A stretch of DNA of 64,000 nt from the NCBI GenBank assembly GCA_008632985.1, contig QPGO01000015.1, forward strand, positions 249,998-313,997, in the 5' to 3' direction. Source of the DNA: Psammoneis japonica. Taxonomy: Eukaryota. This document shows positions 2,693 through 43,326 of this stretch, piece after piece; position 1 is the stretch's first letter; each line of letters begins with the position of its first letter. The notes under the pieces are model-generated. The model made no database searches. It was not told the origin of the DNA and was given only the letters and a program-made list of their open reading frames with translations. Both the position numbers and the translations under genes were made by a program.

Positions 2693-3330
2693 GGTTGTCG
2701 TGCTCGTGACGGTGTGTTTTCGTTGAAAGAAATGCGATCATTGGAAAACACGGCGGCGGTGCGGTGAAAAGCAAGACACGAAAGGGCAACGTCAGCTCAA
2801 TGTCGGAAGCAGAGACGTCATCATCTTCGAACCACGATACGACGTTGTTGCGTTGCGTTGGTCGGTTGGTTGAACTTGGCGCGTTAAGTACGTTCGTCGT
2901 CCGATGCGACTTTCTGCGGGTATCCGTGCAGAATCAGTTTCCCCTGCCTAACCATTAATCCAACCAACTTCTACCAGCCACACCTCTCTACTATTCATAG
3001 AGCTAGAGAGTAGGGCTACCGGTAGACTACGATACTCTCTCTAGAGAGTAGAGCTACCTTACCAGTACAACATACGGTCGACTGGAACTTCGTGTGCACC
3101 AAACTCTAGAGGTAGAGATAGAATATCTATACTAACCAGGTACAGTTTTTGGGCTCATCTCGCCTACCGGTACCTTACCATAATAAGCTTTTTTGAACGG
3201 ACAACGTCGTCGGTAGATTTACAAGTTCTAATTGTTTGTCCATCATGAGTTCTTGGTCCCCTTCCCATTCCTCTCGAGCGCACTAAAGTGCTTGTTTGAA
3301 ATGACTTCCTTCGCGACACAAAAACACATA

Positions 3331-4140
3331 TTATGCCAAGCTCGACTTCGTGCCCCGGTCTACACCGATTTCGACTTGGTTGTCATCTCCGTCAAGCGGT
3401 AGCTCGATCCTCATTGGTCCAATTACAACGGCAACATCAGGGAGCAATTCCATGACAGATCTAGATTCCTCTGCTGTCTCCCCTCCGTCTCCGCTCCTAG
3501 CTGCGTCAACAATGCTTCCGAAGTACTTCTCCACGAAAGGGACTGCCTTCACCCCGGTCAACAATTGATGGGTTTCCATCGAGATGTCACTGCCGCCGTC
3601 TAATTTTACCATGTCACCACCAAAACATTCAATCTGCTCCCATGTCACTTGCTTTTTCCTTCCATCCATCCAAGGAAACGCAGTAATTGCTACTCTACGA
3701 TAACCACCATCCGCACACTCCAGGCATTCATCCAACTCTTCTTGGACAGCCAGCAGCCCCCAAGGCTTTTTGCTTTGAGCCGGTAAGAAATATCCCTGAA
3801 ACCAAGAAGAATCGAGTTCATGTAGACAAATGATTGCTTGACCATTGTACACTTCCACGTTTTTTGGGCGACTGTTCTGTTCTCCCCTTGTTCTCCTCGG
3901 CGATGTCAATTTGCACGACGGGTCGTCGCAGCACCACTCCATCTCGACACCACCAGAGCTCGTTTCTTTCTTGACGTTGGAGCGGCGTTTCACTTTTGTC
4001 CATCCCAATGGGAGTGGCGTGGCCGGTGCCGGAAATTCATTGACGGACTCGGCTCCGGTGTCGTCCACATTGCGGATTACGGCATCGCCCGACGCATCGA
4101 CGGCGTGTTCACTTTGACTCGCCTTTGGATCCGTTTCCAT
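3331..4140 (-). CDS. Hypothetical protein (269 aa)
   Basis: ATG-started ORF with normal composition; no family recognised. Confidence 0.6.
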   Translation of the reverse strand: METDPKASQSEHAVDASGDAVIRNVDDTGAESVNEFPAPATPLPLGWTKVKRRSNVKKETSSGGVEMEWCCDDPSCKLTSPRRTRGEQNSRPKNVEVYNGQAIICLHELDSSWFQGYFLPAQSKKPWGLLAVQEELDECLECADGGYRRVAITAFPWMDGRKKQVTWEQIECFGGDMVKLDGGSDISMETHQLLTGVKAVPFVEKYFGSIVDAARSGDGGETAEESRSVMELLPDVAVVIGPMRIELPLDGDDNQVEIGVDRGTKSSLA

Positions 4141-4563
4141 GTTTCTCTTGTTGTCGTCTCTCGATGAATACGCCGTAGAACCGACAAGTCAGTCAAAGCG
4201 AGAATAGCAGTGGAATAGTATAGCAAGCAATCAAGTAAGGGAGCAAAATAAGCGAACAAACCCAAACCCAAAACTCAAAACAATATCCTCAAAGCAGTAT
4301 CAGTATGGTACCGTAGTTAGTAAAGCATGCACAAGAAGCTTACTCATCAATGATAGAATGATGTGCTGTCAATCTGAATAGTAGCGATTAATTAAAATTA
4401 TCATGCACAAATAAAATATAAATTAAAAATAGAAGTATACATGATTGAATATTCGAATCGGCTTGGAGGGAGTTTTTCGAAATCAAAATGAAGACGCGCG
4501 TTCCAGTGCGCATCTTTGATGCGAATTCGAATACAGTAGGGCCCTATCTAATTTGCTCTCTCA

Positions 4564-5559
4564 CTATTGTTGCTTCCTATCCATCTCCTGCAATTTTGCA
4601 GACAAAAGCGCAGCGCTTTGTTCTGGAAGGTCGTTTATCTTTTCCTTGAGGTCTTCGATCCATCCCAGCTCTGAAATGAGTTCCAAGAATACAGCATCGC
4701 ATGAGCCTTTGGCAAAGAAATCTCGCTCGGGGCTGTCACCATAATCAATCCCCAACTCCGCACCCACGGGATCCTTGTTCACAACCACTCTCATCGTCGA
4801 TTCGGGCACATTATAGACGAGACTGTTCGCTGGAGACACAACCAAGGATGTACCAGCAACTATCAACAAGTCCAGTTCAGGCAAATCGTTCTGCGCACAT
4901 TCGAAGAACCGCGAGGGTAGCGACCGACCGAACAGTACCGTTGTTGGCTTTACCATGGCTTTACCACACGCCTTGCACACTATCGGAGAAGACTGCTTCG
5001 GAGCTTTATCATCTATTTTGTAAATGTCCTTGATGTGTGCTTGAACGTCATTACAGAATTCATCATAGTCGGCTTCATGTCCGCACGCCTCACACGACGC
5101 TTGAGAAATAGTCCCATGCACATTGACAATCTTGTCAGCAGGGATTCCATCACATTGACGATAGAGCCCGTCAATATTCTGAGTGTATACCCTTGTTAAC
5201 TTTTTTGTTCTGACATGTAGAAGCTCAGCAAACCAATGGGCGATTGTGGCTCTCCATTCTTTCTCTCGCGTCTTCAGGATAAAAGGCCGACGCACTTCCA
5301 AGTAAGGAAACGCCGTTTGTTGAAACATATCCCAGCTTACAACCTCAGTGGGATCAAGGCGCATCGCTTGACGCTGGGATTCTGTTGCAGTAATGAGATC
5401 AGGTTGCAAGGTGTCGTACATACCACCTGGACTTCGAAAGTCCGGAATCCCAGAAGCCACAGAGACTCCTGCACCTGTGAGTAACGCAACCGATTTGCAT
5501 TCCGGTGATAGCAAATATCGAGCCAACGAGGCAATGTCGACCGGAGCTGAAACCTTCAT
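4564..5559 (-). CDS. NAD-dependent deacetylase, Sir2/SIRT2-like (class I sirtuin)
   Basis: GAGVSVASGIPDFRSP, YTQNIDGL, HGT, two CxxC Zn pairs, KPTTVLFG, GTSLVVSP. Likely start MKVSAP at 5559. Confidence 0.92.
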   Translation of the reverse strand: MKVSAPVDIASLARYLLSPECKSVALLTGAGVSVASGIPDFRSPGGMYDTLQPDLITATESQRQAMRLDPTEVVSWDMFQQTAFPYLEVRRPFILKTREKEWRATIAHWFAELLHVRTKKLTRVYTQNIDGLYRQCDGIPADKIVNVHGTISQASCEACGHEADYDEFCNDVQAHIKDIYKIDDKAPKQSSPIVCKACGKAMVKPTTVLFGRSLPSRFFECAQNDLPELDLLIVAGTSLVVSPANSLVYNVPESTMRVVVNKDPVGAELGIDYGDSPERDFFAKGSCDAVFLELISELGWIEDLKEKINDLPEQSAALLSAKLQEMDRKQQ

Positions 5560-5779
5560 GAGAAAAGCAAATAAGAGACAATGTGGAATCAAGTTTTGAA
5601 GATTAGTTCATGCAGCGAGGTTGTGTTGCTTTTTTTTATTCATATTGCTTTTCGGAATTTTTGGACGTTTGCGCGGCCGCGGAGCGCGATTTTCAGAGGC
5701 GACTCCTCCTCCTCCTGCTGCCTCACGACTCGCTGTTCTTTCGAAGTACGAATGGGACTCTCCAAAGTAGAGTCCGAAC

Positions 5780-8400
5780 GCATTGACGACAATGCGTGAC
5801 AAGCGACACTTTTGTTGGAGGAAGGCCTCTTTCGCAAATGACGAGTTGTGAATGGGATCGAAAACACCGAGTGCTTGAGGAATGCTGTTGAGTTCAATCC
5901 CCGTTGCTGCCGTGACGTGATCCAACTGGAATGCAGAGCAGGGCTGAAGATTGCAGTTGATCGTGCAAGATGATGACTCCTCACACCATCAATTGTTCTT
6001 AGGCTCATGAAGGTTGCATTGAACAAGGATGGGTGAGTGCAGTTGTTCTGAGCGGAAGGTGCAATGCTTGTGGTGTGCATCTGACCTGTGCGACACTTGC
6101 TGGCCCTCAATGCCGAAGCAAGCCAACAACAAAAATTCTTCCTGCCGACTCAAAAACCATCATGGTGAAAGAGATTTCTGCACCTCCCTTCTCAAGAAAC
6201 CCCAGTTTGTGTTTGAAGATTTTGAGAGTGACCTGCTGTCCACATGGGAATGGCCACTGAGCGACCGTCGCTGGCGGGGGGTTTGAGGGTCGCATTGGTT
6301 GCAGCACGCATGGCGGCCAACATGTTTGGAGCCAAAGAAGAGGCATTGGTGCCAGGGGAAGCACTGGGCGAGGTGGCAGGAGGTGAGTCACCATCCTGAG
6401 CTGATGCCGGAGACAGAGCAGAAAGCAAAGATGTCACTGAGGAGATCGCCAGGACAACACCATCTTAGATCAAGTGCCGCAAGCAGCGGCCATCATGGGG
6501 TGTTGGTTGTGTTGTGAAAATGTCAATTGTGCACTGGGCAGTTGGCACTGGATTTTTAGACTGTGCAACTCATGCATGTCTCAGCACGCAAGTGGAAAAT
6601 TCACCATGTCACATGCACCACGTTGACTGATGAAATCGAAGAGGATGAAAAATGCAGCGGCATTGTTGGCACCATCGGCGTCAACAGAGCGGTGTTGTTG
6701 TTGTTCAAAACAATGTCCACCAGTGTCAACAAGGTTGTGCAATGAGTGTTTTGTTGTTTTGTGGTGCGGCACATGGGCCCCACTTGCTTGCAGCAGCAAA
6801 AGAGCGGCTCACAACCTCAGAGCAATCCACTGTCTGCACAGAAATGGCCACTCCACTGAGAGGTTTTGTCAAATCAGGGACTGCAACACCAAGTCATGGT
6901 TTGCCATTTTCTCTTTGCTCCAGTTTTGACAGACGTGCAATCCTGTTGTGCTTGCTGCAACAAACCACAAATCGATTGGTTGGAGTTCTGGCAACCACCG
7001 CAAACAAAATGTCTGGAGGACTTCTTGTTCCAAACTCAGGTGGTGCTCACATGCCCATTTTTGCACAAAAATGAATGTTTTGTGATGTGTGCATGCATTG
7101 CAACAATTGTTTGCACCGCAAATGTTGTGTTCATGACTGAAGCTCAAACAAACAAGTGAAAGGAAAACAAAAACAGTCATGGCTCTTTCAGCAGCCATGA
7201 CAGCCTCCTCTTTTCAACCTCGCGGACAATTGTTGAGGGGCATCATGAGGAACACAGCATTTGACATGGTTGGCACATGAACTGCACATGACAAAAATGG
7301 CTGCTGCAGTCTGTGGTGCACTTTTGCACTTGGCCATGGTGACTGCAGCTTTCAGAAGCAACAACCAGCCTCATTTTGCTCCCAATTTAATGCCAAGGAG
7401 ACTGTTTCTTTTCCTTCGTCGTGCAAGTCATTTCCCAGTTGTCAACTGGTGCAAGACTGTCAGTCATCGACATGGAGAAAGCAGTGGGAAAGGATCCAAA
7501 GTTGATGCCATTGTGGTGCTGATGCATTTCTTGATTCATCCTTCAATCAATTTGTTGCTCAATGAACATGTTGTTGAAACAGTTGAATCGCAAGTGTCAG
7601 AATGAATGCACAAAAAACTTTTTGCCTGTGTGCCACATTGACCCAATTTGTGCAAAAGAACGTTCATGCATGTTGCATGTCAGCACATCAATGTGAACAT
7701 AAATTGCTTGATGAAAAATTGAGCTCTCATCTTGCGGCACCATTTGGTGACAACAGACCCGATCAATCTTCAGAAATGAAATTGCAGGCACACACACGAG
7801 GCCTTTTTGCATGTGTTCATGTCCAAACATTTGAGTGTGTCCACTTTTTTACTGTTAAAAATTGCACTGCAAGTTTGAGCCATGCATTTAATGGGAAAAT
7901 GGGCATTTTTCATGCATGTGCGCACCCAAGTCTGGAGCAAGTGGAGTGTGAAGAAGACGCCAAAGGCTTCAAAGAAAAAGCAAACAATTGGAAGCAGAAG
8001 AAGGGTGAGCCATCCTTGGGCATGCGGCATTCATGTTTGACAACCTTGGCTCTTCTCCTCTCAGTGACATCTCAGTTGCAGGTTTCGCAGGACGACCAAT
8101 TCTTGAAAGCTCAACAAAGCAACTGTGGCAATCACAACAGTGTGCGCCAAAAGCAAGTGGTGTGTCAAGACGAAGAGAAGATTTTGTTTGTGCATCACAC
8201 GACAGCGATTTTGCTTGCATCGAAGTGAACAGATTTTGAAAACGGCGCAAGTTTTTCTGAACAAAGCAAAATAAGGCGGGAAAACAAACAGTGTCTCACT
8301 GTCACATTTTGTGCAGTTGTGGTGCGAACCGCTGGGTGGGTCTGCCCTTGTTGAAAGTTGAAACTTCCCGCACGACGAGCTCCGAACTCCAAAAAGAATG
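5780..8400. mobile_element. Degenerate repeat/TE-derived block, TpA-depleted; family not identifiable
   Basis: Almost no TA dinucleotides; overlapping Cys/His-rich, Tyr-free ORFs on both strands. Same signature as the identifiable retroelement at 18-21 kb. Confidence 0.55.
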
Positions 8401-8673
8401 AGCAGTTGCAGACGCTTGCGTGGGGCTGTTCTGGGGGACGTCTTCGGAAGTGAGACTGTCGAAGAAAGTTACGTAGATTTTGTACTAAAACAGTCTGTCA
8501 ATCAGTGCGATTGGGTATTTGGGACCTCTGGACAGATCCTACGTGTTTTTTTTTGCGTACAAATTGTACTGGGAAAGCCCCAAACGCACTGGCGATCAGA
8601 CCGCCTTCGACGATCTCACTTCCATCCAAAGACGCCCCCCAGTTCCAACTTCCAACAAACAGAAGCGACAACG

Positions 8674-9510
8674 ATGATGATTCCACGTCTTTGCTCCACT
8701 TTTGGACTGTTGCCCTTTATTCACTTTGCTGACTCCTTTAGCAACAATCGAATGGTCTTGCCGAGAACTGATGCCGGCAAATCGAGGTCGTCGGTCAAAG
8801 TGCAACGACAAGGTGTTGGAGCGCTGTTTCTGGCTTCTACTGGTGCCGATGTCAACGATGAAAATGTCGACACCGACAGCTTACCTGCTCTGATTGTATT
8901 CGATTTGGATGGTTGTCTGTGGCGCCCTGAAATGTATGAACTTCTTTGGTATTCTAATGGGCGTGGTGCACCATTCCGTCCAGATCCGAACATGCCGGGA
9001 CAGCTCTTGACTCGCGGAGATGAACCAGTGTATTTGCTTGGGCAAGCACGACAGATAATGAAAGAGATTTGGACCGAAAGAGAATCAAAGTATCGTGGCG
9101 TAACCTTGGGTATAAGCAGCCGAACGGATCAACCTGACTGGGCTCGAGAATTGTTGGACAAGTTCGGCATTGACGAAACGGAGAATCAGGGTACTTCGAG
9201 ATACGTGAGTCTTCGAGATGTGTTTGGAAAGGGTCCGATAGAAATATCTCATGATTCAAAAGTAAAACACTTTCAAAGAATTTCGCAACAACACGGTATT
9301 CCTATGGAGAAAATGCTCTTCTTCGACAATGAGTCTGGAAACTGCCGAGAGGTATCAAAGTTGGGTGTAACAGTTGCATACTGTCCGGATGGTGTGACAC
9401 AACAAGTTTGGGATGTGGCACTTGAGTCATTCCCTCAAAGCAACGGAGATATGATTGGCTTAGATATCTACGGATATGACACTTTACAAGGCGCTGATCG
9501 GTTCTATTAA
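8674..9510 (+). CDS. Magnesium-dependent phosphatase 1 (MDP-1, HAD family), probably plastid-targeted
   Basis: VFDLDGCLW, SSRT, K..HF and FFDNE HAD motifs. N-terminus MMIPRLCSTFGLLPFIHFADS|FSN resembles a signal peptide with Phe at +1 (ASAFAP-type). Confidence 0.85.
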   Translation: MMIPRLCSTFGLLPFIHFADSFSNNRMVLPRTDAGKSRSSVKVQRQGVGALFLASTGADVNDENVDTDSLPALIVFDLDGCLWRPEMYELLWYSNGRGAPFRPDPNMPGQLLTRGDEPVYLLGQARQIMKEIWTERESKYRGVTLGISSRTDQPDWARELLDKFGIDETENQGTSRYVSLRDVFGKGPIEISHDSKVKHFQRISQQHGIPMEKMLFFDNESGNCREVSKLGVTVAYCPDGVTQQVWDVALESFPQSNGDMIGLDIYGYDTLQGADRFY

Positions 9511-9588: not shown

Positions 9589-10992
9589 CTAGTAGCGAGG
9601 CATCGAAGGGTCAACATCCTTCTGCCATCTCATGATCCCACCATCAAGGTTATAGAGGCGATCGGGCTCAACGCCTAGATCAATCAGCCGATTGCACGCC
9701 TTTTTGCCTCTCACTCCAGCCTTACAATACACCAGAACATCACCAGCCTTGGGGATATTGTCCACTTGGACCGTTCTGTGAGAAACAACTTTGTCAGTAA
9801 AAGGGAGAGCGACAATGTCGTGTTCTGTCCCAAGTCGGACGTCTAATACCCATGGTGACCAACCGTTCGACAACCTGTCTAGGCACGCCACTGGTTCAAT
9901 CGTATGAAAAGCCGGAGGGGTATCTGAAGATGATTCAGTCTCTGCTTCATCCATCGTTCTCCCCTCTGCTGTAGAATCCGTTTCTTTCGCTTTCGCTGGA
10001 GGAGAGGGCTGTTTCGGACCTGCGCAGAATCCTTGATAATCGATCAGTTCTGTGATTTCCTGTCGGTCTTTCAGCTTGGCTAGTCCAATCTCGCTGAATT
10101 TCATGGTAAGGGCATCAAACACCAGCACACGGCTACTCACGAGCCCTTCTCGACGTCCAAGAATGAATTTGATAACCTCTGTCGCTTGCAAACAACCCAT
10201 TGTTCCAGGAAGCACGCCCAAGACCCCACCCTCTGCACATGAAGGGACATCTCCTGGTGGGGGAGGTACTGGCAGCAGATCGCGATAGGTTGGACCGGTT
10301 CCATCCAAATTAAACACAGACAACTGTCCCTCGAACGCAAGAATGGCGGAGTAAACCCACGTCTTTTTCAATATGTCGCAGGCATCATTGATAAGATACT
10401 TGGTGGGAAAATTGTCGCTCCCATCCACTACAATGTCGTACGGCCTGTCGGTATCAAAGCCATCACCCAATATCCTCATGGCAGTTTGTGACGTGAATTC
10501 TTCTTCATAAAGTCGAACCTTGACGAAAGGATTTATGTCTTGGATGCGTTTCTGCGACGATTGACACTTTGACATTCCAACAGTGGATGTCCCGTGTATA
10601 ATCTGCCTTTGTAAATTCGACTCATCAACAGTATCACCATCAACAATACCTATGTGTCCAACACCGGCAGCTGCCAAGTACAACAGACAAGGCGATCCCA
10701 GACCACCGGCACCCACGACAAGGACACTGGCATCTCTTAGCGCCTTTTGACCAGCCATTCCGACATCACCCAGAACCAAGTGACGTGAATAGCGCGCAAT
10801 CTCGGGATTTGTCAAGTCCGTATCGTCATTGCTCGTACCAAGAGAAATTGATTTATCACGGGAAGAGGTACAAGTTCGACGTTCACCGAAAGCGTTGGAT
10901 GTGCTGGGCGAAACAACAAAAGCAGCTGACATGCCACACAGATTCAACTCCGCTGCAAGAACAACGATTGTGCCGGCAAACAAAGCCTTCAT
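9589..10992 (-). CDS. MoeB/ThiF adenylyltransferase-rhodanese fusion with bipartite plastid presequence
   Basis: RYSRHL, VGAGGLG, DESNLQRQIIH, VPSCAEGGVLGVLPG; rhodanese YCKAGVR and LDGGIMRW. Signal peptide ending SAA|FVV. Confidence 0.9.
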   Translation of the reverse strand: MKALFAGTIVVLAAELNLCGMSAAFVVSPSTSNAFGERRTCTSSRDKSISLGTSNDDTDLTNPEIARYSRHLVLGDVGMAGQKALRDASVLVVGAGGLGSPCLLYLAAAGVGHIGIVDGDTVDESNLQRQIIHGTSTVGMSKCQSSQKRIQDINPFVKVRLYEEEFTSQTAMRILGDGFDTDRPYDIVVDGSDNFPTKYLINDACDILKKTWVYSAILAFEGQLSVFNLDGTGPTYRDLLPVPPPPGDVPSCAEGGVLGVLPGTMGCLQATEVIKFILGRREGLVSSRVLVFDALTMKFSEIGLAKLKDRQEITELIDYQGFCAGPKQPSPPAKAKETDSTAEGRTMDEAETESSSDTPPAFHTIEPVACLDRLSNGWSPWVLDVRLGTEHDIVALPFTDKVVSHRTVQVDNIPKAGDVLVYCKAGVRGKKACNRLIDLGVEPDRLYNLDGGIMRWQKDVDPSMPRY

Positions 10993-17376: not shown

Positions 17377-18729
17377 TGTCAGCGCAATCACTTTGTTTCT
17401 ATTTTTTGCTGTGGCGTGCCTTGAGCGCTTGGCACACGTCGTCTCGTTTCATCAAATGGTGAGAGGCACGTTGGTAGCTCCTCACAAGGAAACAAAGTTG
17501 AGTCCGAAGACAACGCGTCTCCGCAACGTTAAAATGAAAAATGAGAGATTTCTGTTTGAATGGCAAGAGGTTTTCCTTCTTCACACTCAACCTTCGTCTC
17601 CGACAAATGCAAGATGTTTCGAGTTGGAGTGAGGGAACTAGCTACTCTAGCTCTCTACTCTTAGAGGGAGTTGTGCATGGATATTCCAAATAATTTTGTG
17701 AGACACGGAATCGCCAATCAAGAACGCAACGCCATTTCTATATTGATTTCTATATCATTATTAATACAATATTTAAATGACGATTTCCGTTGAGGACATT
17801 TTTGGACGCGCGGAATGGTCAGCGTGTGTGCCGACACAGGCCGACACATCACACTGGCTGAACTGTTCGTTGCTAATTCTCCCTGTCCTCAGGGTCAAGC
17901 ATCACCATCAGAGATCGGAGGGCTTCTTACGTTAGGTATCTGAGACTGTCCGGCAGTGAGTCATTGTTTTCAAACTTCTTACCACGAGTTGTCATCTTTC
18001 TTCATGCTGGGATGCTTGTGACGATTTTTTGCTTGCTCGAAAATGTCAGATTTCCAGTTTTTCTTTCTTCTGACGATTTTTGGCACGCCCGAAGGAATGC
18101 ATTTCCAATTTTTTTTCTGACAAATTTTCGCGCCAGCAAAATTTTCAGTTGAAATGGGTGTTTGTTCAGGGATGTCACTGAGTGCATTTCCAGTTTTTCT
18201 TTGCTTCTCTGATGATTTTTTCGGAAATCAGCCAGAAACATCATCGTTGCAGCAGCGAAGGGGCAAGGACAGACACATCCAACACCATCCGCAGCCTTGA
18301 ATGGATTGGAGTGCCAAGGGCATTCTCCGTTGCAACTCGTCACCTCCTGTTGAGGCCGGAGCAGGAGCTGCAATTTTGACACCTTCCCAACCCACAGGGC
18401 GGGGGCACACCCGCACCGGCACCCGCGCCGGCGGCCACCTCCTGAAAACCCGGGCCAGCCAGTCCTCAGACTGGCCTGCAGCCTGCCTCTGCCAGCTTGC
18501 AAGACCTGCATCAGCAGTGCCCCTGCAGTGATGAGCTGGGCAAGCCAGCAAAGGAACAGGTCAATCTCTTGCATCAGCCAGGCTCTGGCCCCAGTTGTCG
18601 CACACTTGCACAGGGAACCATGTCTGGCGGAGAATGTGGACCAGCTGCCCCATCCAGCTGCCAAGCCACTTAAAAGTCTCTGTGACAATGGAGCACCTGT
18701 CCAGTTTGCCACCCCAGACTTGATGCCAG

Positions 18730-19464
18730 CCCAGATCCAGATGGCCACCGACCGCGGCAGCCATCCGTCTGCACATGAGTGCCTGGGTTTTCTCAAGGCT
18801 GATGTGGTGGACATCATGATCCACAAGCACTGCTGGACTGTCCTGCTGCACTGCAAGGCTGCACAACTGCCGCACCTGTGCATGTCACCAATGGGCGTGG
18901 CACCGCAACACGACCGCCGTCCACGTGCCATCGTTGACTGCAGTTTCTGCAGCCTCAACAACGAGACCATCACGCAAGCCCCAACCGATGCCATGCAGTT
19001 TGGGTGCACACTCAACCATTTTCTACACAAGATTTTCTGTGCTGCCTGAAGCACAGCCCTGTCTGCATGCTCAAGCTGGACCTGTCATTCAGATGGACCC
19101 AGATCCAGATGGCCACCGACCGCGGCAGCCATCTGTCTGCACATGAGTGCCTGGGTTTTCTCAAGGCTGATGTGGTGGACATCATGATCCACAAGCACTG
19201 CTGGACTGTCCTGCTGCACTGCAAGGCTGCACAACTGCCGCACCTGTGCATGTCACCAATGGGCGTGGCACCGCAACACGACCGCCGTCCACGTGCCATC
19301 GTTGACTGCAGTTTCTGCAGCCTCAACGACGAGACCATCACGCAAGCCCCAACCGATGCCATGCAGTTTGGGTGCACACTCAACCATTTTCTACACAAGA
19401 TTTTCTGTGCTGCCTGAAGCACAGCCCTGTCTGCATGCTCAAGCTGGACCTGTCATTCAGACGG
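18730..19464. repeat. 368-bp tandem duplication inside the RT region
   Basis: 18730..19096 and 19098..19464 are near-identical, with three substitutions seen. Confidence 0.95.
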
Positions 19465-19564
19465 TTTCTGCCGGGTGGGCCTCCGGCTCCAAGACATGAC
19501 CAAGCTGGGGGTTGCCTTCCCAGTGGGCCCGGGCGAAGAACCCCTGATCGCCTCACCCTTGGTT

Positions 19565-19970
19565 TGACACATTCCAGCTCTGGGTGAGACCTTGCACTGT
19601 TGAACTGTGACGTGTTTGTTTTTTGTCATCCGTTGCATGTTTCTCATGCACATTTCTATGTGTTTTGTCACAAAAAATTGTTCCACAGCCACTGCCTGTT
19701 TTGCGAAGCCAAAGGCTTTTTTTCTGTTGTCTGCATTTGTGACAACAAAAATGTGCTGGGTGTGTTCTTCAATGTCTGAAGAATGCACCCGGGCATGCTG
19801 CAAAGAATGCGCTTCAAGTGTGGAGGAGGAGATGCGTTCGCAAAATTGCCTCTTTTTCTGTTGGCAATCATTCACACATCCATTGCTTGACAATTTTGCT
19901 GTGGAGCTCGCACGCAGAGTTCTGCAGGCCCAATGTCACAAAAAGTCCCACCTGGGGCTGGAACTCGTCG
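19565..19970. mobile_element. 406-bp MITE-like insertion with ~26-bp imperfect TIRs and GTT target-site duplication
   Basis: Left end TGACACATTCCAGCTCTGGGTGAGAC versus reverse complement of right end CGACGAGTTCCAGCCCCAGGTGGGAC. GTT at 19562-4 and 19971-3. Excision restores RT PLVLPMG. Confidence 0.85.
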
Positions 19971-21258
19971 GTTCTTCCCATGGGCCAAACGGAAAGCCCA
20001 CCGCACTTTTGCTTCAGCATGGAAACGGTCATGGATCTGGCAAACAACTGTGCACCAACCGTGTGGGACCCCCCACCTCACCCGCTTGAGTGGGCTGCGG
20101 CAACCCCGGCACCGGTGGACAGGTCCTTGCATGTCAACATGCCACCACCTCCTGGCAAGACTCCCATGCGTCAACTCGTCAACATCCCACTGCCGCAGTT
20201 GCTTCACCGCCATCATTGTCATGGCTCCCAACCACTGCAATGTTTCAACGTGCACGTCAACGATGAAATTGCGGCTGCTCAAGGAGCTGCAGCATGCCTC
20301 AACAAGGTCTGACAACACCTCCTGTACATCAACGCCCAAGTTTTCTGACCAAACACACCATCTGATGAACATTGGTGATGGGAATCTAACTCCCTCAAAA
20401 AGCTCTCCAAAGGTGATGCCTCCTGGTCCACCATCAAAGCAATCTTGGGTTGGATCATTGACACCCTGGCTGGGACAATCCAACTTCCCGTGTGTCGACA
20501 ACAACGATTGCTCTCCATCCTTGAGGACACCATTCCTTGCCGGCGTACATCCAACAAAACCACTCACAAGCTTTTGGGCGAAGTGCGCAGCATGTCATTG
20601 GCTGTCGCCGGCAGCGCTAGACTCCTGTCGAACTTGCAGCACTTGCTCACCATGTCTCGCAATTCATGCACAAAAATAAACAGCAATGCTCAATGCCAAC
20701 TGCAAGACCTCCATGCACTGGCAGTGGACATTGTGTCACAACCCACGAGGCTCACGGAGCTGTTCCCGGCTGCCGACGGGCACTGCTGCGGTGCTTGCGA
20801 TGCTGCAAAACCCGGGTTCGGCAGCGCGCTCCTTCCAGGGCCTGGCAAGTGCCACCACCCCCGGACCTCCAGGCATCCATCATTTTGGATGACAACCCAA
20901 CTGGCACCATCACCAACTCGGATCTTGGAACTCTCTCTGGCACTGTCACGCATGAAGCCGTTGTCGGCCGTGCCGTCAACGTCCGCGAGCGCTCGGTCCA
21001 CACGTGCTGTGACAACACCCCGTCAGTCTCCTGTCGCAGAAAGGGCTCCGTCACCACGGACGGCCCCGGCACCGACATTCTCCAAACTGGTGGTCTCCAA
21101 CAACGCCATCTCCGACACGTCTCCCGGCTGCACTGCACACCGGGGCCAGCCAACCTGTTGGCAGACACGTGCTCAGGACAGCACAGTGCACGCGCGCAAA
21201 AAAGTGACGCTCGACGCTCGACGCTTCAATCTCGATCCTCCAATCCGCACTCAGCGCC

Positions 21259-21615
21259 ATGTCGCACAAGACTTTACCGTCGCTGTTGCGTCACTTCATT
21301 GGATCAGAGGTAGTGGTAGAAATAAAGACAGGTCGCATGTACAGAGGGGAGCTGGTATCGACGGATGACTACATGAATGTATCACTGCAAGACGCAAAAC
21401 AAACACAGTTTCCAGAGTTCTCTCGCAAACGACCTCGAACCGAAGTGCCAGCCTCTGCCTCCGACTCCTTCTTATTCAACTGCATGCAGATCCGAGGCAG
21501 TAACATTCGTTATATTCACTTTCCAAACGAATTAGACTTGGCGGAAGGTGTGAGAGCTGGCTTAGACCGAGAGCGTGCTGCGGCGAACAAATATCGACGT
21601 GGACTTCGCAAATAA
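21259..21615 (+). CDS. Sm/LSm-fold protein, LSm10-like
   Basis: Sm1 (VVVEIKTGRMYRGELVSTDDYMNVSL) and Sm2 (IRGSNIRYIHFP) motifs. Confidence 0.8.
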   Translation: MSHKTLPSLLRHFIGSEVVVEIKTGRMYRGELVSTDDYMNVSLQDAKQTQFPEFSRKRPRTEVPASASDSFLFNCMQIRGSNIRYIHFPNELDLAEGVRAGLDRERAAANKYRRGLRK

Positions 21616-23624: not shown

Positions 23625-24850
23625 CAAGGAGAAGGAGGCATCAAAGAAGCTGCTTTAGCATGCCCAACGCAGCATGCAGGGCATTTTGCAGAGGGGATGG
23701 GGGAAGCACTGTCTGTGTGAAAGATGGAGAGGAAGCAAATGGCATGAGAGGAGAGGTGATGTGCAACATCATGAGTGAGAGTCTGAGTCACCCACTGAGA
23801 AGGGGAGGAGGAGGAATGGTGCATGGTGCCAAAGTGATCACTGATGAGCTGATTCTGGCAAAGTCAGCAAAGGAAAGGAAAAAGGAGGAAGAAGTGAGTG
23901 CACAACAGATGTGAACACCAGCAGGGTGGAGAAGAGGACAAGAGGGCAGGAGGTTTGCAGGCTCAGTGCAAGCAAACATCAATGGGCAAATGACACAGGG
24001 GCCCCAGGTCCACCAAATGGCAAAGATGGTGTCACAGAGGCCATTGGAGAGCTTGAGCTTGTGATTGCAATGGTGTGAGAGAAATGGGAAGGCTCAGTTT
24101 TTACAGGCATTGAGGGTGGCATGGAAGCAGGGGCAGCGAGAGCCAACGAGGCACACGGAGGCCAGGAAGGATGGGAAGGTGCTGTTTGTTCTGGGCAGCA
24201 ATGGTGCAGGCATCAGAGGCAAGGCAAGTGCTGAAACAGTGGCAAGAAAGGGAGTGAAGGGGAAGGCTTGTATGGGGGAAAGGGGGAAGGCTTGCAGGGG
24301 GGCAGGGATGAGACTTCTTGAGTGTTGCTGGGGCTGAGGGGGGAGCATCAGCAAGGGCAGCCAGAGGAGGCAGCAGCACCTTGCTGATGAGTGTGGCAGA
24401 GATGGTGAGCCAGACCAGGAAGCATGACTGACTTGACAAGAGTGGCCAAGGAGGGAGAAGGAAGCCGGGAGTCAGAGGCAAGGGCGGAAAAGCAAAGCCA
24501 CAGAGGAGGTGTGCAAAAGTGGAGATGATGGGAGCGAGGGTCGTTCCAAGAGGAGAGGGAGATTTTGAAGCAGCAGGGATGGTCAGCAGAGTTGCCAAAT
24601 GGCAGTTGGACTCCATGAGTGGCAAAGCGGAAGGAGCGATGGAGGGCCACAAGAAAGGAAGGAATGGCAGTGGCGGAAGGGAATTTGAAATTGAGATCTT
24701 GCGAGGGGCAAATGGGCCGCGTCGCCTCTTGCGCTGCTTCTTATCTGCCGCTACGGCGCCGGCAAAGCAGTGTCACCCAACCTGTTTTTCTTCTCTGTTT
24801 TTTCTTACTTCTTTGGTTGTCTTTCGTTGACAAGAGGGCAGTCATGGGCA
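23625..24850. mobile_element. Degenerate TpA/CpG-depleted repeat fragment with strong purine skew (possibly LINE-derived, minus strand)
   Basis: G/A-rich plus strand like the 13.5-kb fragment; near absence of TA; broken Pro/Leu/Ser-rich frames. Confidence 0.5.
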
Positions 24851-34439: not shown

Positions 34440-37400
34440 GCTGGTTAGAACATGAAGCATGGAACCACATCGATCAAGCTCAGTTCATTTCAGTGCACCT
34501 TGATTGAATTTTCACACTGGAAAGGTCTCAACAACACAGCAGAGATAAAAAGCTGGTGCTGGAATCACATGAAGAGGACATTGACATTCATTGTGTGGAA
34601 GCTTTTGATCTCAAGGTTTTTCTGCCCCCCCAAGCTTGGGAGAGGTTTAAACCCCCCACCCACCCACCCCCCACCCCACCAGGCCTTTCCCACATGAAAA
34701 TTGCTCGAGTTTGGTCAAGACCACTTGGCCAGCCCCCCTGTCTGTCATCGGAAGAGTGTGTGTCCTTTGACACCAAAGACTGATCCATCTCCTGCATTGT
34801 CAATGCAAATTGTCTAAAGGCTGGGATGCCTTGGCACTTGGGTGTTTCTTTTGACAATTGGGCGGGGGAGCAAACTGACAAACTTGGACAAACATCAGAA
34901 ATCTGCACCCCACACCAGAACTCAACACAATCCAATGGTCAGCAACAACTTCAATGCCCAAGGAGTGGCACTTGGCTGTCATGGAGAAGTTGAAGCAAAA
35001 AAGACTGGAGCTCAGGCTTTCTTGCTCTTTTGATGCAAACCCTTGAACAAGCAGCTCAAGGATTGCACATGCAACCTGCACTGGGGCTGCCACACAAGCA
35101 ATTTCCACACTGCATTTGATGCTCAGGAGAGTGCCCAGGGGGCTTCTCTTGTTTTGTGGTGTCAATGCTGCCATTGCTTAAAATGTTGGTTGCTGGCAGT
35201 GCCTTGTGCAGATTTGCCAAGGCACGTTGTCAAAGAAAAAAATCATGATGGCCTTCTGCTGGGCCACCACCAAATTGCAAGCCAAGAAGGCAGTGGTGCA
35301 GTCAGGGCACCAGCGGCACACTCAAATTGGCACTTGTTTTTTCAGTCAAGTGCCTTTGTTTGTGGTTTGTTGTTTGGCATCTGTGCCTTGAAACAACAGC
35401 CTGCAACATGTTTTGACTTTTGACAAGAAAATCAAACAACAGCCAAATTTTTACACCCCTGGGACTGTGCTCTCCACAGGTGTCACAATTTTTCAAAAGC
35501 CAACCAAGTTGGTCACTGTGGTTGCAACTCTAAATTAACACTCACTCATTTTTGCCACAAATCTGGCATTGCCAAGCTGTCATTCAGGTTGACACTTTTT
35601 TTTCAGCGGTCATGGATTTGCAATGTGTTTTATTTTGTGGCCCAGCATCTCATTCAAAGTTGGCTTGCATGTTTGGAAGAGCTTCAGCTCAGTTGCCCAC
35701 TGCATGTTTTTTTCATTTTTGCTGATTTCATGTTGTTGTTGCATCAGGCACCACACAACTCAGCCACCAATCCATCATTTGCATGAGACAGTGGCACATC
35801 CCTGCTGCAATCTGATGTGTCCTCATCACACACCTGACAACAATGACAAGACTCTCTCTTCAAAACAAACTTCTTGTTGAGCCAACCCCATTTTGATGGA
35901 CAGTGCAGCTGCACACTTCAATCTTTTCCTTCCATCCAGTGTCAGTTGGCACTTCAGAGCCCAGCTCACACAGCAACAGCCATGCTGTCATTCAACCCCT
36001 GTCATCATTCATGCTTCTTGTTGCCAAGAGTGCTCATCAAGAACCAACTCAACCTTGTTGTTGCATCATTGCAATTTGACAAATTCCATCACCAACCTAG
36101 ATCACGTCACATGGGTCTGTCTCTGCACTTCATTCAGCACCACTTTGAAGCTGCAAATTGACAACAAGCACACCACAAACATTTTTTGGGGGCACCAAGT
36201 CATCAAGGCTGGCATGGCTGCAATTTGATTTTGTGTTTTTGTTTTGGTCTGGGCTTGCACACAGCACTCTGTTTTGGCAGTGGCAGTGGATTTCTCTGTG
36301 CCAGTGAATGCCAAAATATGTCCACTGTTTGGGCTGCTCTTCTCCTGTTTGCTCTGTGAATGCATCAGTTTTGTCCATTGCAGAAGATTGCAGAGGGTCA
36401 TTTGGAGGCCACACTTGTCAAAGTGCTGGCACCAATTTGCTTGTTGGAGATCAGGTGGGCATTGTTCTGCATGCACCCAACTCCAGGACCCAGGCTGCAT
36501 GAGTGGCAGTTGCAACCAAGGATTTGGCAAGAGAAAACACATTTGACATTGAGACTTGGTGCAGAGGTTGGCACAGATGATTGACACCACATTGCAATGA
36601 GAGCTGTGTCATTGAAAAAATTGGCCATGAAGACTCACTCAACAACTCACAGCAGGAAAGCTTGACAAGGCCGCAAGCCTCCAAGAATTGTGTGGCATGC
36701 AATCAGCACAGCTCAACTTCACATTTCACATTTCTAACTCACATGCAAATCAATCCTCCCATGAGATCCATTTTTGCTTGAACTTTGGATCAGAGCAAAT
36801 TTCTCCATTCTCCTCAAGCCATTTCACCCCTGCCAAACAACTCCATGTTTCTGGCATTCCCACTCAGTGCACTCTTTTTGAAGTTTCACTCACCTGTTGC
36901 CACCCAGCAATGAAAACTTTGAAAGAGTCACTCTGGAGTTTAGAAATCCCAGTCTGCTGCTGTTCTTGGGAGCAAGGTGACACAGGGGGTCACAACACCA
37001 CAGGATCAACCTTCTTGCAATGCCCAACCACAATTTTTCAGAGTGTCAGCTGGGGTTTGCCAGACACAACTGCCATGGCAGTGTCCTCAGCTTGCTGTCA
37101 TCAGGTTGGTTGGTGCCATTGTGGGGTCTTTTCACTTTGGAGTTTGAAAGTTCAAGTCTGCTGCAAGATTGACATTGCAATGCCCAGCCACAGCCCTTGG
37201 GGTGTCACCTGGGGTCTGCCAGATGCTGCCAGTGTCCTCCTCTCAGCATGCCATTGTCAGGTTGGTTGGCACTGTCATGGGGCCCTTGCACTTGCTGGAG
37301 TTCGGAAACTCATGTGCACTGCTGTTGGAGACAACAATGTGACATGCTGGGGGCACAACACCACAAGATCAGCCTTGCAATGCTCAGACACAGTTCTCAA

Positions 37401-40400
37401 AATGTTGCCTGGGACCTGCCAGATGCCAGATGCCACCACAGTCCTCAGCCATCATTTGTCAGGTTGGTTCTTGGTGCTGCCATGAATCCTTGCACTCTGG
37501 AGTTGGGAAAGTCAAGTCTGTGGCTGTCAAGGACCAGGTGACATGGGGCCACAATGTCACAAGATCAACCTGACAAAGCTGAAACACAGTTCTTAAAGAA
37601 GTCTCATCTCCCTGGCATGTGGCTCAACAGAGCTTTGTCACTCACAAGTGCTGGCAGCAAGAGCATGTGCTGGCACAGACACACACAGTGGACATCTGTC
37701 TTTTACATCATGCCACCAACATGCACGAAAGAGTCTTGAAAAATGATCTTCTTGGCTCAGACACATTGAAGCCAGAGCACCCAAGAGACTGTTGCTCAGC
37801 AAATGGCACATCTGTTGCCACCACAAAAACAATGGAGTCAACACAGACGATTCTCCTCCTCCAATGTTGTTTGTCTTTTTTGCTTCCTCCTGCTGCAGGA
37901 ACCCTTGTGGCATGAAATCTCAATGCAGCATGCATCCGCTGGTGGAAAACATGGTGAGACCACACAGCATCCCATCATGCTGCACTGCACACCAGCACAG
38001 CATGGTGTTGGCACCAAGAAAGCATGCAGCTCAGAGGGTGTGGCTCTGCATCAGGCACTTCCAGAAGAGGGTGCTGGAGTGTCTGTGCAAAGCATGCACA
38101 CATTGACTGCCCCCCAACATGGGCAAGATGCAGTGCTGACACAAGCAATGAGCGAGTGTTTGTGAGTGCACATCATCTGGGATTGGAGAAATGTGGAGCA
38201 ACTTTGATGTTGTCCAAAATGTGAACAAATGGGAGAACCCGTGCACCCCTGTTCACACAACTCTCTGTTTCCCCAGCTGCCAGCCAGTCTCACAATTGTC
38301 ACAGCAGTGCTTTTGTGACCCATCTGTTTTTTTTTCATCACCTGTCTGTGTGGGGTGTGGGGCAAAGCAACATTGCTCCCACAAAGTGCAAAAGGTTGCA
38401 AATCTCTGTTTTGACAGACAATGCCAGTCAACAAGGGCAATGGCTGCTGTGAAGCTAACCATGAAAAGCAGATCAAGCCACCAATTCTCCCTGAAATGTC
38501 CAGAGAAGAAGGATCTGCAGAAGGAAGAGCACCAGATGCAGAAGCTCTGCAGTGATCCTGGAGATCTGGGCACTGCTCCAACACACAAGCTGAGCCTGCC
38601 ACACTTCTCAGGTGGCTCTTGCAAAGAGCACCTTTGTTCATTTGAGCACAACTGGAGCAGCTCTTGAAGTCTCACCTGGGGTCCACCAGAGACCACCAAT
38701 GCCACTCTCAGCTTGCATTTGTCAGGTTGGTTGGTGCTGTCATGGGGTCCTCTCACTCTGGGGTTGGGAAAGTCAAGTCTGCTGCTGCAGGAAACAAGGT
38801 GACATGGGGCCACAATGCCACCATGAGATTGACCTTGCAATGCCCACGGCTCTCAAAGTGTTGCCTGCTGCAATCTGCCAAACACAGCCAGTGTCCTCAG
38901 CTTGCTGTTGTCAGGTTGGTTTGTGCCATCATGGGGGCCTTTCATGCTCTGGAGTTTGGAAGTTCAAGTGTGCTGCTGGCTGTTGGGGACAAGGTGACAT
39001 GGGGCCACACACCACAAGATCAATCTTGCAGTGCCCCCAGCCACAGTTCTGAAAGCACCACCTGGTGTCTGCCAGATGCTGCCAGTGTCCTCCTCAGCTT
39101 GCAACTGTTGGGTTGGTTGGCACCACCATGTGGTCCTTTCACCATGGAGCTGGCAAGAAGTTCAAGTCTGGTGCTCCTCCTGCTGAAACAAGGTGACGTG
39201 GAGCCACAACCAAACAAGACAGGCCTTGCACTGCTCTCAACCATGGTTGTTGCAGTGCAACCTGGGGTTCACAAGAGACCACCAATGCCCTCAGCTTGCT
39301 GCTGTTGATGCAGGTTGGTTGGCACCACCTTGGGGTCCTTTTGTTCTTGAGTGTTGGGAGTTTGAGCTGTGACAGAGCCCTGCAACTGCACAACACTGGC
39401 TCTCAGCACTGAACCACACTTCTTGGAGAGTGTTGCCTGGGGTTCACCAGGCAGAGACCACCAGCACCCTCAGTCTGCCATTGCTTCTTGTTGGGTTGGT
39501 TGGTGTGCCATCATGGGGGTGCTTCACTCTGAAGTTGGGAACTTCAAGTCTGTGTCAACCTGCCAGTGGGGACAAGGTGCCACACGGGGGACCACAGGCC
39601 ACAGCAGCACACAAGAGACTGTGCTGGCATGGGCAACCACTTGTTGGGAAGGAGGGGCTGCAGCATCCACATGTTTTCTCTGGGGAAGGCTGCTGCTCTG
39701 GCTCTTTGCAGGAACACACATGCAGCGCTGTGGCTGTGCTGACCCAGCCAACCTCTTGCTCAACCAGCTCCCTGTCTGTGACCTCGTGCCTGCAAGTTTC
39801 AGTCATGGTGAGAGTGATTTGTCACAAACAACCCAAAGCTTCAAAGAGAAGTTGAAGAAGTGAAAGGTTTTTTTAAACTTGCCACTTGCAAAATGATGCA
39901 GGAGGCAATGATCACAAGGCTGACTGGCTTGGCTCCATGGCTCAAAAAGGCATGTCTCATCACCACACAAAACAAGACAAAAACAAAGGATGCATCCAAA
40001 CAACACACAAACAATGATGGCATTGCAAGAAGGCACCAACAAAGCCCAGGACTCTGCACATGCTAACAAAGAAAAGCCATGTGGGAAAGGCAAGAGATCA
40101 GAAGTGTGACATGGGAGCAGGCAGCTTGCAGCAAACAACAAGCTGATGCTCTCCTTTTCCACTTTGTTCTTTGTTTCTTGAAACTCAGACAAGTTGACAA
40201 AAACAGCCAAGGACAAGAAACAAAGTGCTGCAACATTGCACACAGGTGAGCAGAAAGCAACAGCTTTGTTGTGCCATGCTTGCCAAAGAAGCCATGGCAA
40301 ACTGTCAATTTCTCTGCTGTCTTGCACTCTGCAAATGTGTTGCTGTCACATCTCACAATGAAAAGTTGTCACAAAAATTGGCTCTCTTTGGAGCACGAAA

Positions 40401-42920: not shown

Positions 42921-43326
42921 TCTACACAGCCAGCTAGAGACCTCTTCTCTGCCTGCTGTACAGCAGAGCACCGCAGGCCGCAGGACTGCCGCGCCAGTTA
43001 GTTTGAGAGATCATGATGTATGCTGCGACGCACGGACTGCAGTGCCACACATTTCGGTAAATCTTGTTCATCATCCAACATCATCGCTGAATTGTTACAC
43101 GCAGTGTCTACGTACTTTCGGCATTTGAAAATGTGATGCTTCTTTCATGAGTAAAGATCCTAAATAGTATAAACCTATATTCATGGATACGGTAGTCATT
43201 ATTGAGATTATCATTCGACCAGCCAGTACATACCGTATGCATAGTCTACAGTAGGTATCGTGGATTATGGCTCCCACTCTTGTCCAACTGCCAACTGCCA
43301 CTTTTTTCTCCAGCGAAACATGCACC

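Follow-up and report, generated by a model that had tools for sequence, protein, structure and literature searches.

The closest described counterpart of the locus reported here is a TpA-directed mutational process in the chlorarachniophyte Bigelowiella natans. In mutation-accumulation lines of this rhizarian, 230 of the 231 mutations recorded within two stretches of integrated viral DNA were A to G or T to C, all of them on TpA, and the hypermutated DNA consisted of integrated nucleocytoplasmic large DNA viruses (NCLDV) and virophages (Mettrop et al. 2026, bioRxiv 10.64898/2026.01.13.699255). The same preprint counts 124 TpA-poor, CpA+TpG-rich clusters in the B. natans genome (thresholds: Rho TpA ≤0.43, CpA+TpG ≥1.52), describes TpA-depleted coding sequences as enriched in reverse transcriptase (RT) and DDE domains, and proposes an ADAT2-like adenine deaminase. 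Here we describe a comparable signature in a diatom, Psammoneis japonica, on a stretch of 64,000 nucleotides of contig QPGO01000015.1 (assembly GCA_008632985.1, positions 249,998 to 313,997 of the forward strand). This whole stretch is called the window and its own numbering is used throughout. The best-identified part of the signature lies in a dead fragment of a Ngaro-like retrotransposon encoding RT and RNase H (RT/RH). It is likely, in our view, that this fragment underwent region-targeted hypermutation of TpA to TpG or CpA at the DNA level, together with decay of CpG.

Counting dinucleotides in 1-kb bins across the window, we observed that the observed-to-expected ratio (O/E) of TA fell to 0.02-0.10 in four stretches. 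The four islands delimited there had a TA O/E of 0.04-0.09 and a CA+TG O/E of 1.6-1.9, compared to a background TA O/E of 0.61, and about 91-95% of the TA predicted by the background O/E of the window, which served as the reference for all island expectations, was gone. For island 2, the difference between 9 TA observed and about 101 expected lies well outside what chance would give. In every island, the summed loss of TA and CG matched the summed gain of CA and TG (Table 1), as a transition-based conversion predicts. Moreover, CA and TG were enriched to a similar extent (O/E of 1.64 and 1.71, respectively) and Tyr had changed to His about as often as to Cys, indicating that both strands were struck. 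Together, the islands covered ~24% of the window. An earlier note on this DNA, drawn from its letters, had tied the loss of Tyr codons to the interval 18540..21175. The catalytic motifs do lie inside that interval, but the effect is wider, extending beyond these motifs over the whole of island 2 (17981-21274) and over three other islands. The islands do not resemble each other at the DNA level, since island 2, when compared to the whole window by blastn, matched only a duplication internal to itself. Likewise, tblastn with 150 protein relatives of the retroelement gave no DIRS-like signal in islands 1, 3 and 4.

TA is mildly depleted in most genomes, and the window background of 0.61 is itself mildly low. 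A general TpA and CpG decay bias acting everywhere, with the islands representing merely the oldest unconstrained DNA, would be in line with this. However, outside the islands, 16 segments of non-coding DNA (11.7 kb in total) had a TA O/E of 0.78 (range, 0.53-1.05) and a CG O/E of 1.01, which argues that there is no window-wide neutral trend. The island borders were also sharp, with 600-700 bp lacking TA followed by normal density. For island 2, the last normal TA was found at 17980, and normal density returned from 21275, 25 nt inside a gene encoding an LSM-domain protein. In the contigs of a public sequencing run of the same organism (run X1, used as contigs only), in which unique DNA has a depth of ~60, the depth exceeded the unique level from ~18000 and was back to ~58 after ~21243. 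This was the only public DNA run found to contain the locus, and no RNA run was listed for it. The borders of island 2 thus match those of a repeat, since the rise and fall in depth lie within ~100 bp of them, and the near-complete loss of TA is confined to the repeat islands. Moreover, TA was fully erased in island 2 though only ~40% of CpG had decayed, and TA was gone before a duplication that has gathered only three differences (see below). Decay without any targeting is therefore a very improbable account of the islands.

Positions 18531-21175 of island 2 hold a broken RT/RH remnant, readable in three frames with stops. We used 19962-20870 as the query for a full HMMER search in 1.8 billion representatives, obtained 1286 relatives at E≤1e-3 (best E=5.7e-67), and aligned the 150 best of these to the window by tblastn. 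The order of RT followed by RNase H was collinear with family members over 18531-21175, in blocks at 18531-19043, 19094-19564, 19971-20879 and 20819-21175. We found at least three frameshifts (ahead of LKHSPVC and ahead of SDGF in the first RT part, and near 20830-20845, where the RT frame is separated from the RNase H frame), truncation at both ends, a 367-bp internal duplication and a 406-bp insertion. The remnant ends directly after RNase H, and only RT/RH is left, with no first open reading frame (ORF1), no tyrosine recombinase (YR) and no termini. Indeed, tblastn queries with ORF1 and with ORF3, each taken from six relatives, had no match under E=0.1, so that no YR was found in the window copy by means of the ORF3 queries, and neither ORF1 nor ORF2 of intact relatives had detectable homology to 17981..18530. 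A second DIRS-like copy was not found by tblastn of the 150 relatives against the whole 64-kb window. Pfam recognized no family in read-through translations of island 2, RT included; RVT_1 stays under the threshold in intact relatives, too, and is missing from the window. A word-based protein search with the RT piece gave one match at near lengths and five nameless ones at longer lengths.

Intact relatives were found as units of ~5.9 kb consisting of ORF1 (~715 aa), ORF2 with RT/RH (~830 aa) and ORF3 (~390 aa), the last of which overlaps. ORF1 and the RT/RH ORF share one frame with a single stop between them (819-2963 and 2967-5426 in locus L009), and read-through of this stop is possible, judging from the reading frames. 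Three loci (L001, L029 and L074) carried head-to-tail arrays with a period of ~5.86 kb, and L009 had identical 300-nt ends that lie 5934 nt apart. No Pfam family was recognized in ORF3 of the relatives, and a PDB sequence search with an ORF3 profile returned chance P450 matches (E~0.7). In contrast, an AlphaFold model of ORF3 (pLDDT, the model's confidence score, 76.7) matched Cre/Tre, Xer, phage and Tn1549 integrases (Foldseek E=2.3e-6); there were 45 matches at E≤1e-3, and among the matches listed 30 of 30 were tyrosine recombinases. The motifs RPGE, QKNG, SLRxGA and GRWRS...RYLH were read in ORF3 by eye. Split direct repeats of the form A1...B1-A2-B2 were present in L058 (2017-2139 equals 7805-7927 and 7665-7806 equals 7946-8087, both 100% identical), and none were found in L018. 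By its ORF order, the predicted Cre-like fold of ORF3 and the L058 repeats, the family is a tyrosine-recombinase retrotransposon of Ngaro/PAT-like layout (order DIRS), a class assigned by layout, with the lack of a methyltransferase-like domain judged from ORF length. The DIRS/Ngaro label of the earlier note thus suits the family, whose intact members encode a YR; unlike Ngaro/PAT elements, the window copy retains RT/RH alone.

The catalytic motifs of the remnant had been read in the earlier note as a record of Tyr changing to Cys or His, and each of the altered motifs it listed is present. The RT motif YVDD reads HVND within VHVNDE (CAC GTC AAC GAT, 20253-20264), PVY..K.D reads PVC within SPVCMLKLD, DGFYR reads DGFCR within SDGFCRVG (Cys codon at 19469), and RNase H YIPG reads CTPG (TGC ACA CCG GGG, 21134-21145). 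The latter is part of HCTPGPANLLAD (21131-21166), which corresponds to (S)YIPGxxNxMAD in relatives. IVDYSF reads IVDCSF twice, at 18939 and 19307, because the 367-bp tandem duplication spans it. We then counted residues per motif column in 30 long relatives, with the six commonest residues listed for each column. The conservation of these positions stated in the note was borne out, with Tyr in 30/30 relatives at DGF[Y]R, 25/30 at HR[Y], 20/30 at IVD[Y], 16/30 at [Y]IPG (His in 8) and 14/30 at GPV[Y] (His in 6), and with 16 Tyr and 14 Phe at [Y/F]VDD. The note had also allowed that relatives might carry Cys or His at these positions. This applies to His, which is natural in a minority of relatives at three of the motif Tyr positions, but not to Cys, which was absent among the six commonest residues of any of these columns.

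The changes were enriched at conserved Tyr columns. Among 250 unique columns conserved in at least 60% of relatives, 181 were unchanged and 69 changed; conserved Tyr was kept in 0 of 6 columns, compared to 181 of 244 for the other conserved columns (Fisher p=3.8e-4), and five of the six Tyr (TAY) columns read CAY or TGY, that is His or Cys, in the window. At the looser limit of ≥30% Tyr, 11 columns (9 without the duplicated copy) contained no Tyr in the window, the residues being H, C, C, H, C, H, D, H and C. Changes of Val to Ala and of Leu to Pro were compatible with GTA to GCA and CTA to CCA. Over 575 aligned columns, the window had 1 Tyr, 27 Cys and 25 Arg, compared to 11.9, 7.2 and 44.9 expected from the relatives. 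Furthermore, the TA O/E of related metagenome loci was 0.47-0.99 in 78/78, these being drawn from the best 80 of 450 with one search pattern that contained Tyr and hence biased towards intact copies; TA loss is therefore not a trait of the family. TA as the ancestral state, as the earlier note had it, is supported by all of this: intact relatives carry Tyr at columns that read His or Cys in the window, related loci have ordinary TA, and the deficit of TA and CG equals the excess of CA and TG.

CpG decay left its own mark on the remnant. The 69 changed columns comprised 22 single CG to CA/TG changes, 7 single TA to CA/TG changes, 7 other transitions, 20 transversions and 13 columns with multiple changes. 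Conserved Arg was kept in only 11 of 23 columns (p=0.012). The three in-frame TGA stops at 20310, 20346 and 20376, for which Arg had been suggested as the original residue, indeed face Arg in 96/139, 107/140 and 94/123 relatives (69-76%), and on this alignment they fit a change of CGA to TGA. The detectable amino acid damage owes more to CpG decay (22 conserved columns) than to TA loss (7). As to the earlier claim that TA loss disabled the element, truncation at both ends, frameshifts, the internal duplication and the interruption had their part in this too. Two relatives from other sources, P0148 and P0054, contain 0.0% and 0.3% Tyr and 6.4% and 9.8% Cys+His, respectively, with His or Cys at conserved Tyr columns. 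As judged from these compositions, the same hypermutation may have struck copies in other genomes or metagenomes.

The RT part of the remnant is interrupted at 19565..19970 by a nested insertion of 406 bp that none of the relatives carries. It has imperfect terminal inverted repeats (TIR) of ~29 bp (20/29 matching, with 8 of the 9 mismatches being transitions), is flanked by a GGTT direct repeat, and contains a single TA in 406 bp. The summed contig depth of this TIR family in run X1 reached up to ~154,000 compared to ~60 for unique DNA, and the element is a member of an extremely abundant family of the host genome resembling miniature inverted-repeat transposable elements (MITE-like). Its other copies allow a comparison of sites. 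At 19770, the window has CA, whereas TA is found in 18,536 of 39,813 depth units of the other copies; TG or CA in the window faces CG in the other copies at 19754, 19784, 19866, 19902 and 19926; and the loose-end consensus of the other copies reads TTAA where the window reads TTGA. Copy number alone seems to be no trigger, since many other TIR copies keep TA at the compared sites.

Run X1 also contains a second genomic copy of the 5' RT region, represented by a 281-nt contig (depth, 50.7) that differs from the window by 31 differences and 6 gaps, mostly transitions. Six positions in ~280 bp were TG in one copy and CA in the other, and a seventh such doublet was found at 18302/3 in other contigs. 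Such TG/CA doublets are produced when an ancestral TA (or CG) is resolved separately in two copies, and they show that each copy was mutated on its own. We estimate that most of the doublets stem from TA, because there are just 6-7 or so single CpG-type differences between the two copies and CpG decay has reached only ~40%. The two units of the tandem duplication give a relative date. They differ at three sites, all of them CpG in one unit and TpG or CpA in the other, and show no TG/CA doublets. Since only CpG sites differ, we infer that TA was erased before the 367-bp duplication and that CpG decay continued afterwards. The nested TIR element, the ~550 bp without homology, the borders and the second copy agree with the earlier note's proposal that TA was lost after insertion, which they favor without proving it.

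In animals, the targets of ADAR and APOBEC3 are RNA or single-stranded complementary DNA (cDNA) that has not yet integrated, and the resulting changes are strand-biased. Like these enzymes, the process recorded here would produce deaminase-type transitions with a neighbor preference that inactivate retroelements. A retroelement could accordingly have been hyper-edited as double-stranded RNA by ADAR-like conversion of adenosine to inosine (A to I) with 5' U preference, or as cDNA, and then integrated, so that TA loss would be an editing fossil and not a genome defense. This would suit an island whose best-identified content is a retroelement; A to G changes beside a 5' U match the ADAR preference (bioRxiv 10.64898/2026.01.13.699255), and separate editing events would also yield TG/CA doublets between two copies. 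In contrast to this expectation, the nested insert, which resembles a DNA transposon, and the 550 bp without retroelement homology were equally TA-free, the strands were equally affected, the TpA specificity was near absolute, and the same pattern was found in three islands that have no RT signal. The erasure of ~91-95% is also far above the level that neighbor-preference editing should reach. We thus regard pre-integration editing as quite improbable. Fast, region-bound action on integrated double-stranded DNA is favored over editing of RNA or cDNA because of the nested TIR element, the tandem duplicates, the doublets and the strand balance.

For region-targeted hypermutation of integrated DNA, the following steps may be proposed. 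A region-targeted process would turn nearly every TpA into TpG or CpA within the four islands, through A:T to G:C transitions at a self-complementary dinucleotide, with the two strands affected to about the same extent. In parallel, CpG would decay more slowly to TpG/CpA, as expected of CpG-methylated diatom transposons. Since both routes end in CA/TG, they account for the changes of Tyr to His or Cys, of Arg to Cys, His, Gln or stop, and of Asp to Asn after C, as well as for HVND. The process would work on integrated DNA and not on RNA or cDNA, and the erasure of TA would be fast, being complete before the 367-bp duplication. The underlying chemistry may be enzymatic deamination of adenine in TpA (A to I, read as G), as in the B. 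natans proposal. Alternatively, the thymine in TpA could be modified, for example by oxidation to 5-hydroxymethyluracil by a TET/JBP-type enzyme, and mispair with G, resulting in T to C. Since TpA is self-complementary, T to C cannot be told from A to G on the opposite strand, and 5-hydroxymethyluracil in dinoflagellate DNA reportedly prefers TpA. Nevertheless, the sole published proposal that we found for such a signature, in the B. natans preprint, is adenine deamination, and thymine modification seems unlikely to us.

We also considered that heavily modified bases in silenced repeats might have been miscalled, with T/A read as C/G at TpA and C read as T at CpG. Base modification is plausible at either dinucleotide, and only repeats show the effect. 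However, contigs of run X1 reproduced island 2 with 0-2 differences per 1.2-kb piece, although the assembly may have been built from this very run, and its reads can be taken as accurate because the 31-mer depth is about 60 and contigs reach up to 315 kb. Frameshifts, truncations, the duplication and the nested insertion moreover mark a truly dead copy, and P0148 and P0054, which come from other sources, are near Tyr-free too. A sequencing artefact is thus hardly credible.

As in B. natans, the conversion is of TpA to TpG/CpA only, affects either strand and is restricted to particular regions, which for island 2 are mobile DNA, and the islands pass the thresholds of the B. natans clusters. Unlike in the chlorarachniophyte, the host is a stramenopile, the identified targets are a YR retrotransposon and a nested TIR element and not viral DNA, and strong CpG depletion accompanies the loss of TA. 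Erasure is complete here, whereas the hypermutable regions described in the preprint retain many TA, and the diatom signature is a fossil one, whereas de novo mutations were observed in B. natans. The text of the preprint mentions neither diatoms nor CpG (zero occurrences of "CpG"), and its supplements may list further taxa or regions. Decay of methylated transposons at CpG accounts for 22 of the 69 changed columns, the three Arg to stop changes and all three differences between the duplicates, but it cannot remove TpA and leaves the complete TA loss unexplained where only ~40% of CpG is gone. Transposable elements are the main targets of CG methylation in diatoms (Hoguin 2023, PMC9998398), which explains the CpG side. 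Repeat-induced point mutation (RIP) of fungi resembles the islands in its dense, context-specific transitions, its confinement to repeats with fairly sharp borders, and the stops and dead transposons it leaves. In contrast to the islands, with their TA O/E of 0.04-0.09 and CA/TG O/E of 1.6-1.9, RIP makes TpA from CpA/TpG; as a cause, RIP (C to T at CpA, with enrichment of TpA) was ruled out by the opposite direction of change. A literature search aimed at diatoms, covering hypermutation of TpA as well as processes resembling RIP, turned up only the Bigelowiella preprint and papers on fungal RIP, and such a signature is unmentioned in the accessible text of Maumus 2009 (PMC2806351) and Hoguin 2023 (PMC9998398).

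Several points weigh against region-targeted hypermutation of integrated DNA. Polarization used protein relatives that are 35-49% identical, and most of the nucleotide changes were inferred from the dinucleotide balance. A TG/CA doublet can also come from an ancestral CpG, the TA origin being an estimate made without an outgroup, and in the retroelement part taken alone, separate pre-integration editing of each copy gives the same doublets. The related loci with ordinary TA were, as stated, selected with a bias towards intact copies. The sole Tyr codon in the aligned remnant (TAC, 20325-20327) faces His in 101/143 relatives, indicating that this TA is new and was made by C to T; as it was not mutated again, the process is not continuously active at the locus. 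Finally, targeting of mobile DNA was observed for island 2 only.

Six-frame Pfam searches recognized no family in islands 1 and 4. Five long ORFs of island 4 matched no Pfam family at E≤10, and the best score of one ESM Atlas search for this island (0.77) was uninformative. This island contains degenerate repeats of ~190-200 bp (~65 aa) at 37086-37560 and 38650-39350, and an assembly gap of 14 N at 41748-41761. A likeness of the ~65-aa repeats to RCC1-type repeats (V.WG.N...), seen by eye, found no support in Pfam at E≤10 or in the ESM Atlas. Instead of a transposon, island 4 may represent foreign DNA or a gene that underwent hypermutation. The residual TA of the four islands (n=56) were enriched in the contexts TTAA (21% versus 5% in the background) and CTAA/TTAG (25% versus 9%), with a T 5' of the T at 50 of 112 half-sites (background, 22%). 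This context could reflect either a preference of the process or a bias in how new TA arise. As TA-free DNA has no TAA or TAG, long spurious ORFs are expected in it by chance (Table 1). The ORF at 8398-9510 is a case in point, in that its acid-phosphatase domain starts only at residue 162, and the N-terminal stretch lying within island 1 is probably spurious. Host genes in the window are long intronless ORFs, and CpG was not depleted in the 75 bp upstream of the LSM gene.

Table 1. Positions of the islands, the retroelement remnant and other features in the 64-kb window (numbering of the window)
Feature	Position	Strand	Basis or remarks
Island 1	5768-8718		TA 18/124 observed/expected; CG 89/160; TA+CG lost 177, CA+TG gained 199
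Island 2 (holds remnant)	17981-21274 (3.3 kb)		TA 9/101 observed/expected; CG 150/238; TA+CG lost 180, CA+TG gained 210
Island 3	23656-24742		TA 3/30 observed/expected; CG 16/66; TA+CG lost 77, CA+TG gained 68
Island 4	34648-42923		TA 23/329 observed/expected; CG 41/478; TA+CG lost 742, CA+TG gained 724
5' part of island 2, T-rich, TA-free, multi-copy	17981..18530	+	run X1 depth 84-205
RT N-terminal and fingers part (IVDCSF, PVCMLKLD, SDGFCRVG)	18531..19564	+	collinear tblastn matches, e.g. P0004 residues 29-182, 76-232
Tandem duplication in RT	18730..19464 (18730-19096 + 19098-19464)	+	99.2% identical; blastn self-comparison of island 2
Nested 406-bp insertion	19565..19970	.	absent in all relatives; gap in every protein alignment
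RT palm, thumb and connection (LPMGQTESPP; HVND at 20253-20264)	19971..20879	+	phmmer to P0002, E=5.7e-67; best relatives 46-49% identical
Three in-frame TGA stops	20310..20378 (20310-12, 20346-48, 20376-78)	+	alignment to relatives
RNase H part, other frame (TNSDL..., CDNTP..., HCTPGPANLLAD at 21131-21166)	20819..21175	+	collinear tblastn matches
LSM-domain protein gene, adjoining island 2	21250..21615	+	Pfam LSM E=1.1e-15
MOCS3-like ORF	9589-10992	-	best named matches diatoms, 65-75% identity: Seminavis, Nitzschia, Mayamaea, Discostella, Cyclotella, Conticribra
Long ORF inside TA-free DNA	18002-18994	-	
Long ORF inside TA-free DNA	20592-21368	+	
Long ORF inside TA-free DNA	36697-37485	+	
Long ORF inside TA-free DNA	8398-8880	+	

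For annotation, the islands mean that TA-free DNA breeds spurious ORFs and that libraries of hidden Markov models miss mutated domains, as seen in the blank Pfam result for the window RT. In a bolder and doubtful extension of our reading, diatoms would have a DNA deaminase system directed at heterochromatin or repeats, perhaps a single ADAT2-like enzyme of dual specificity (A in TpA, C in CpG), that rapidly erases these two self-complementary pyrimidine-purine dinucleotides from invading DNA. Such a "reverse RIP" would be shared with rhizarians and old within the stramenopiles, alveolates and rhizarians (SAR), and roughly one quarter of the 64-kb window would bear its imprint. CRISPR knock-outs are feasible in Phaeodactylum (PMC9998398); as some diatoms are genetically tractable, both the enzyme and the targeting signal would be directly testable. 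As far as the available text of the literature goes, a TpA-directed mutational defense has been reported once, in the 2026 preprint on a chlorarachniophyte. The completed signature in a diatom would extend this process to a second major lineage and suggests that it can reach near-total erasure of TA, that it strikes transposons as well as integrated viruses, and that it is spatially linked to CpG-depleted, presumably methylated, repeats.

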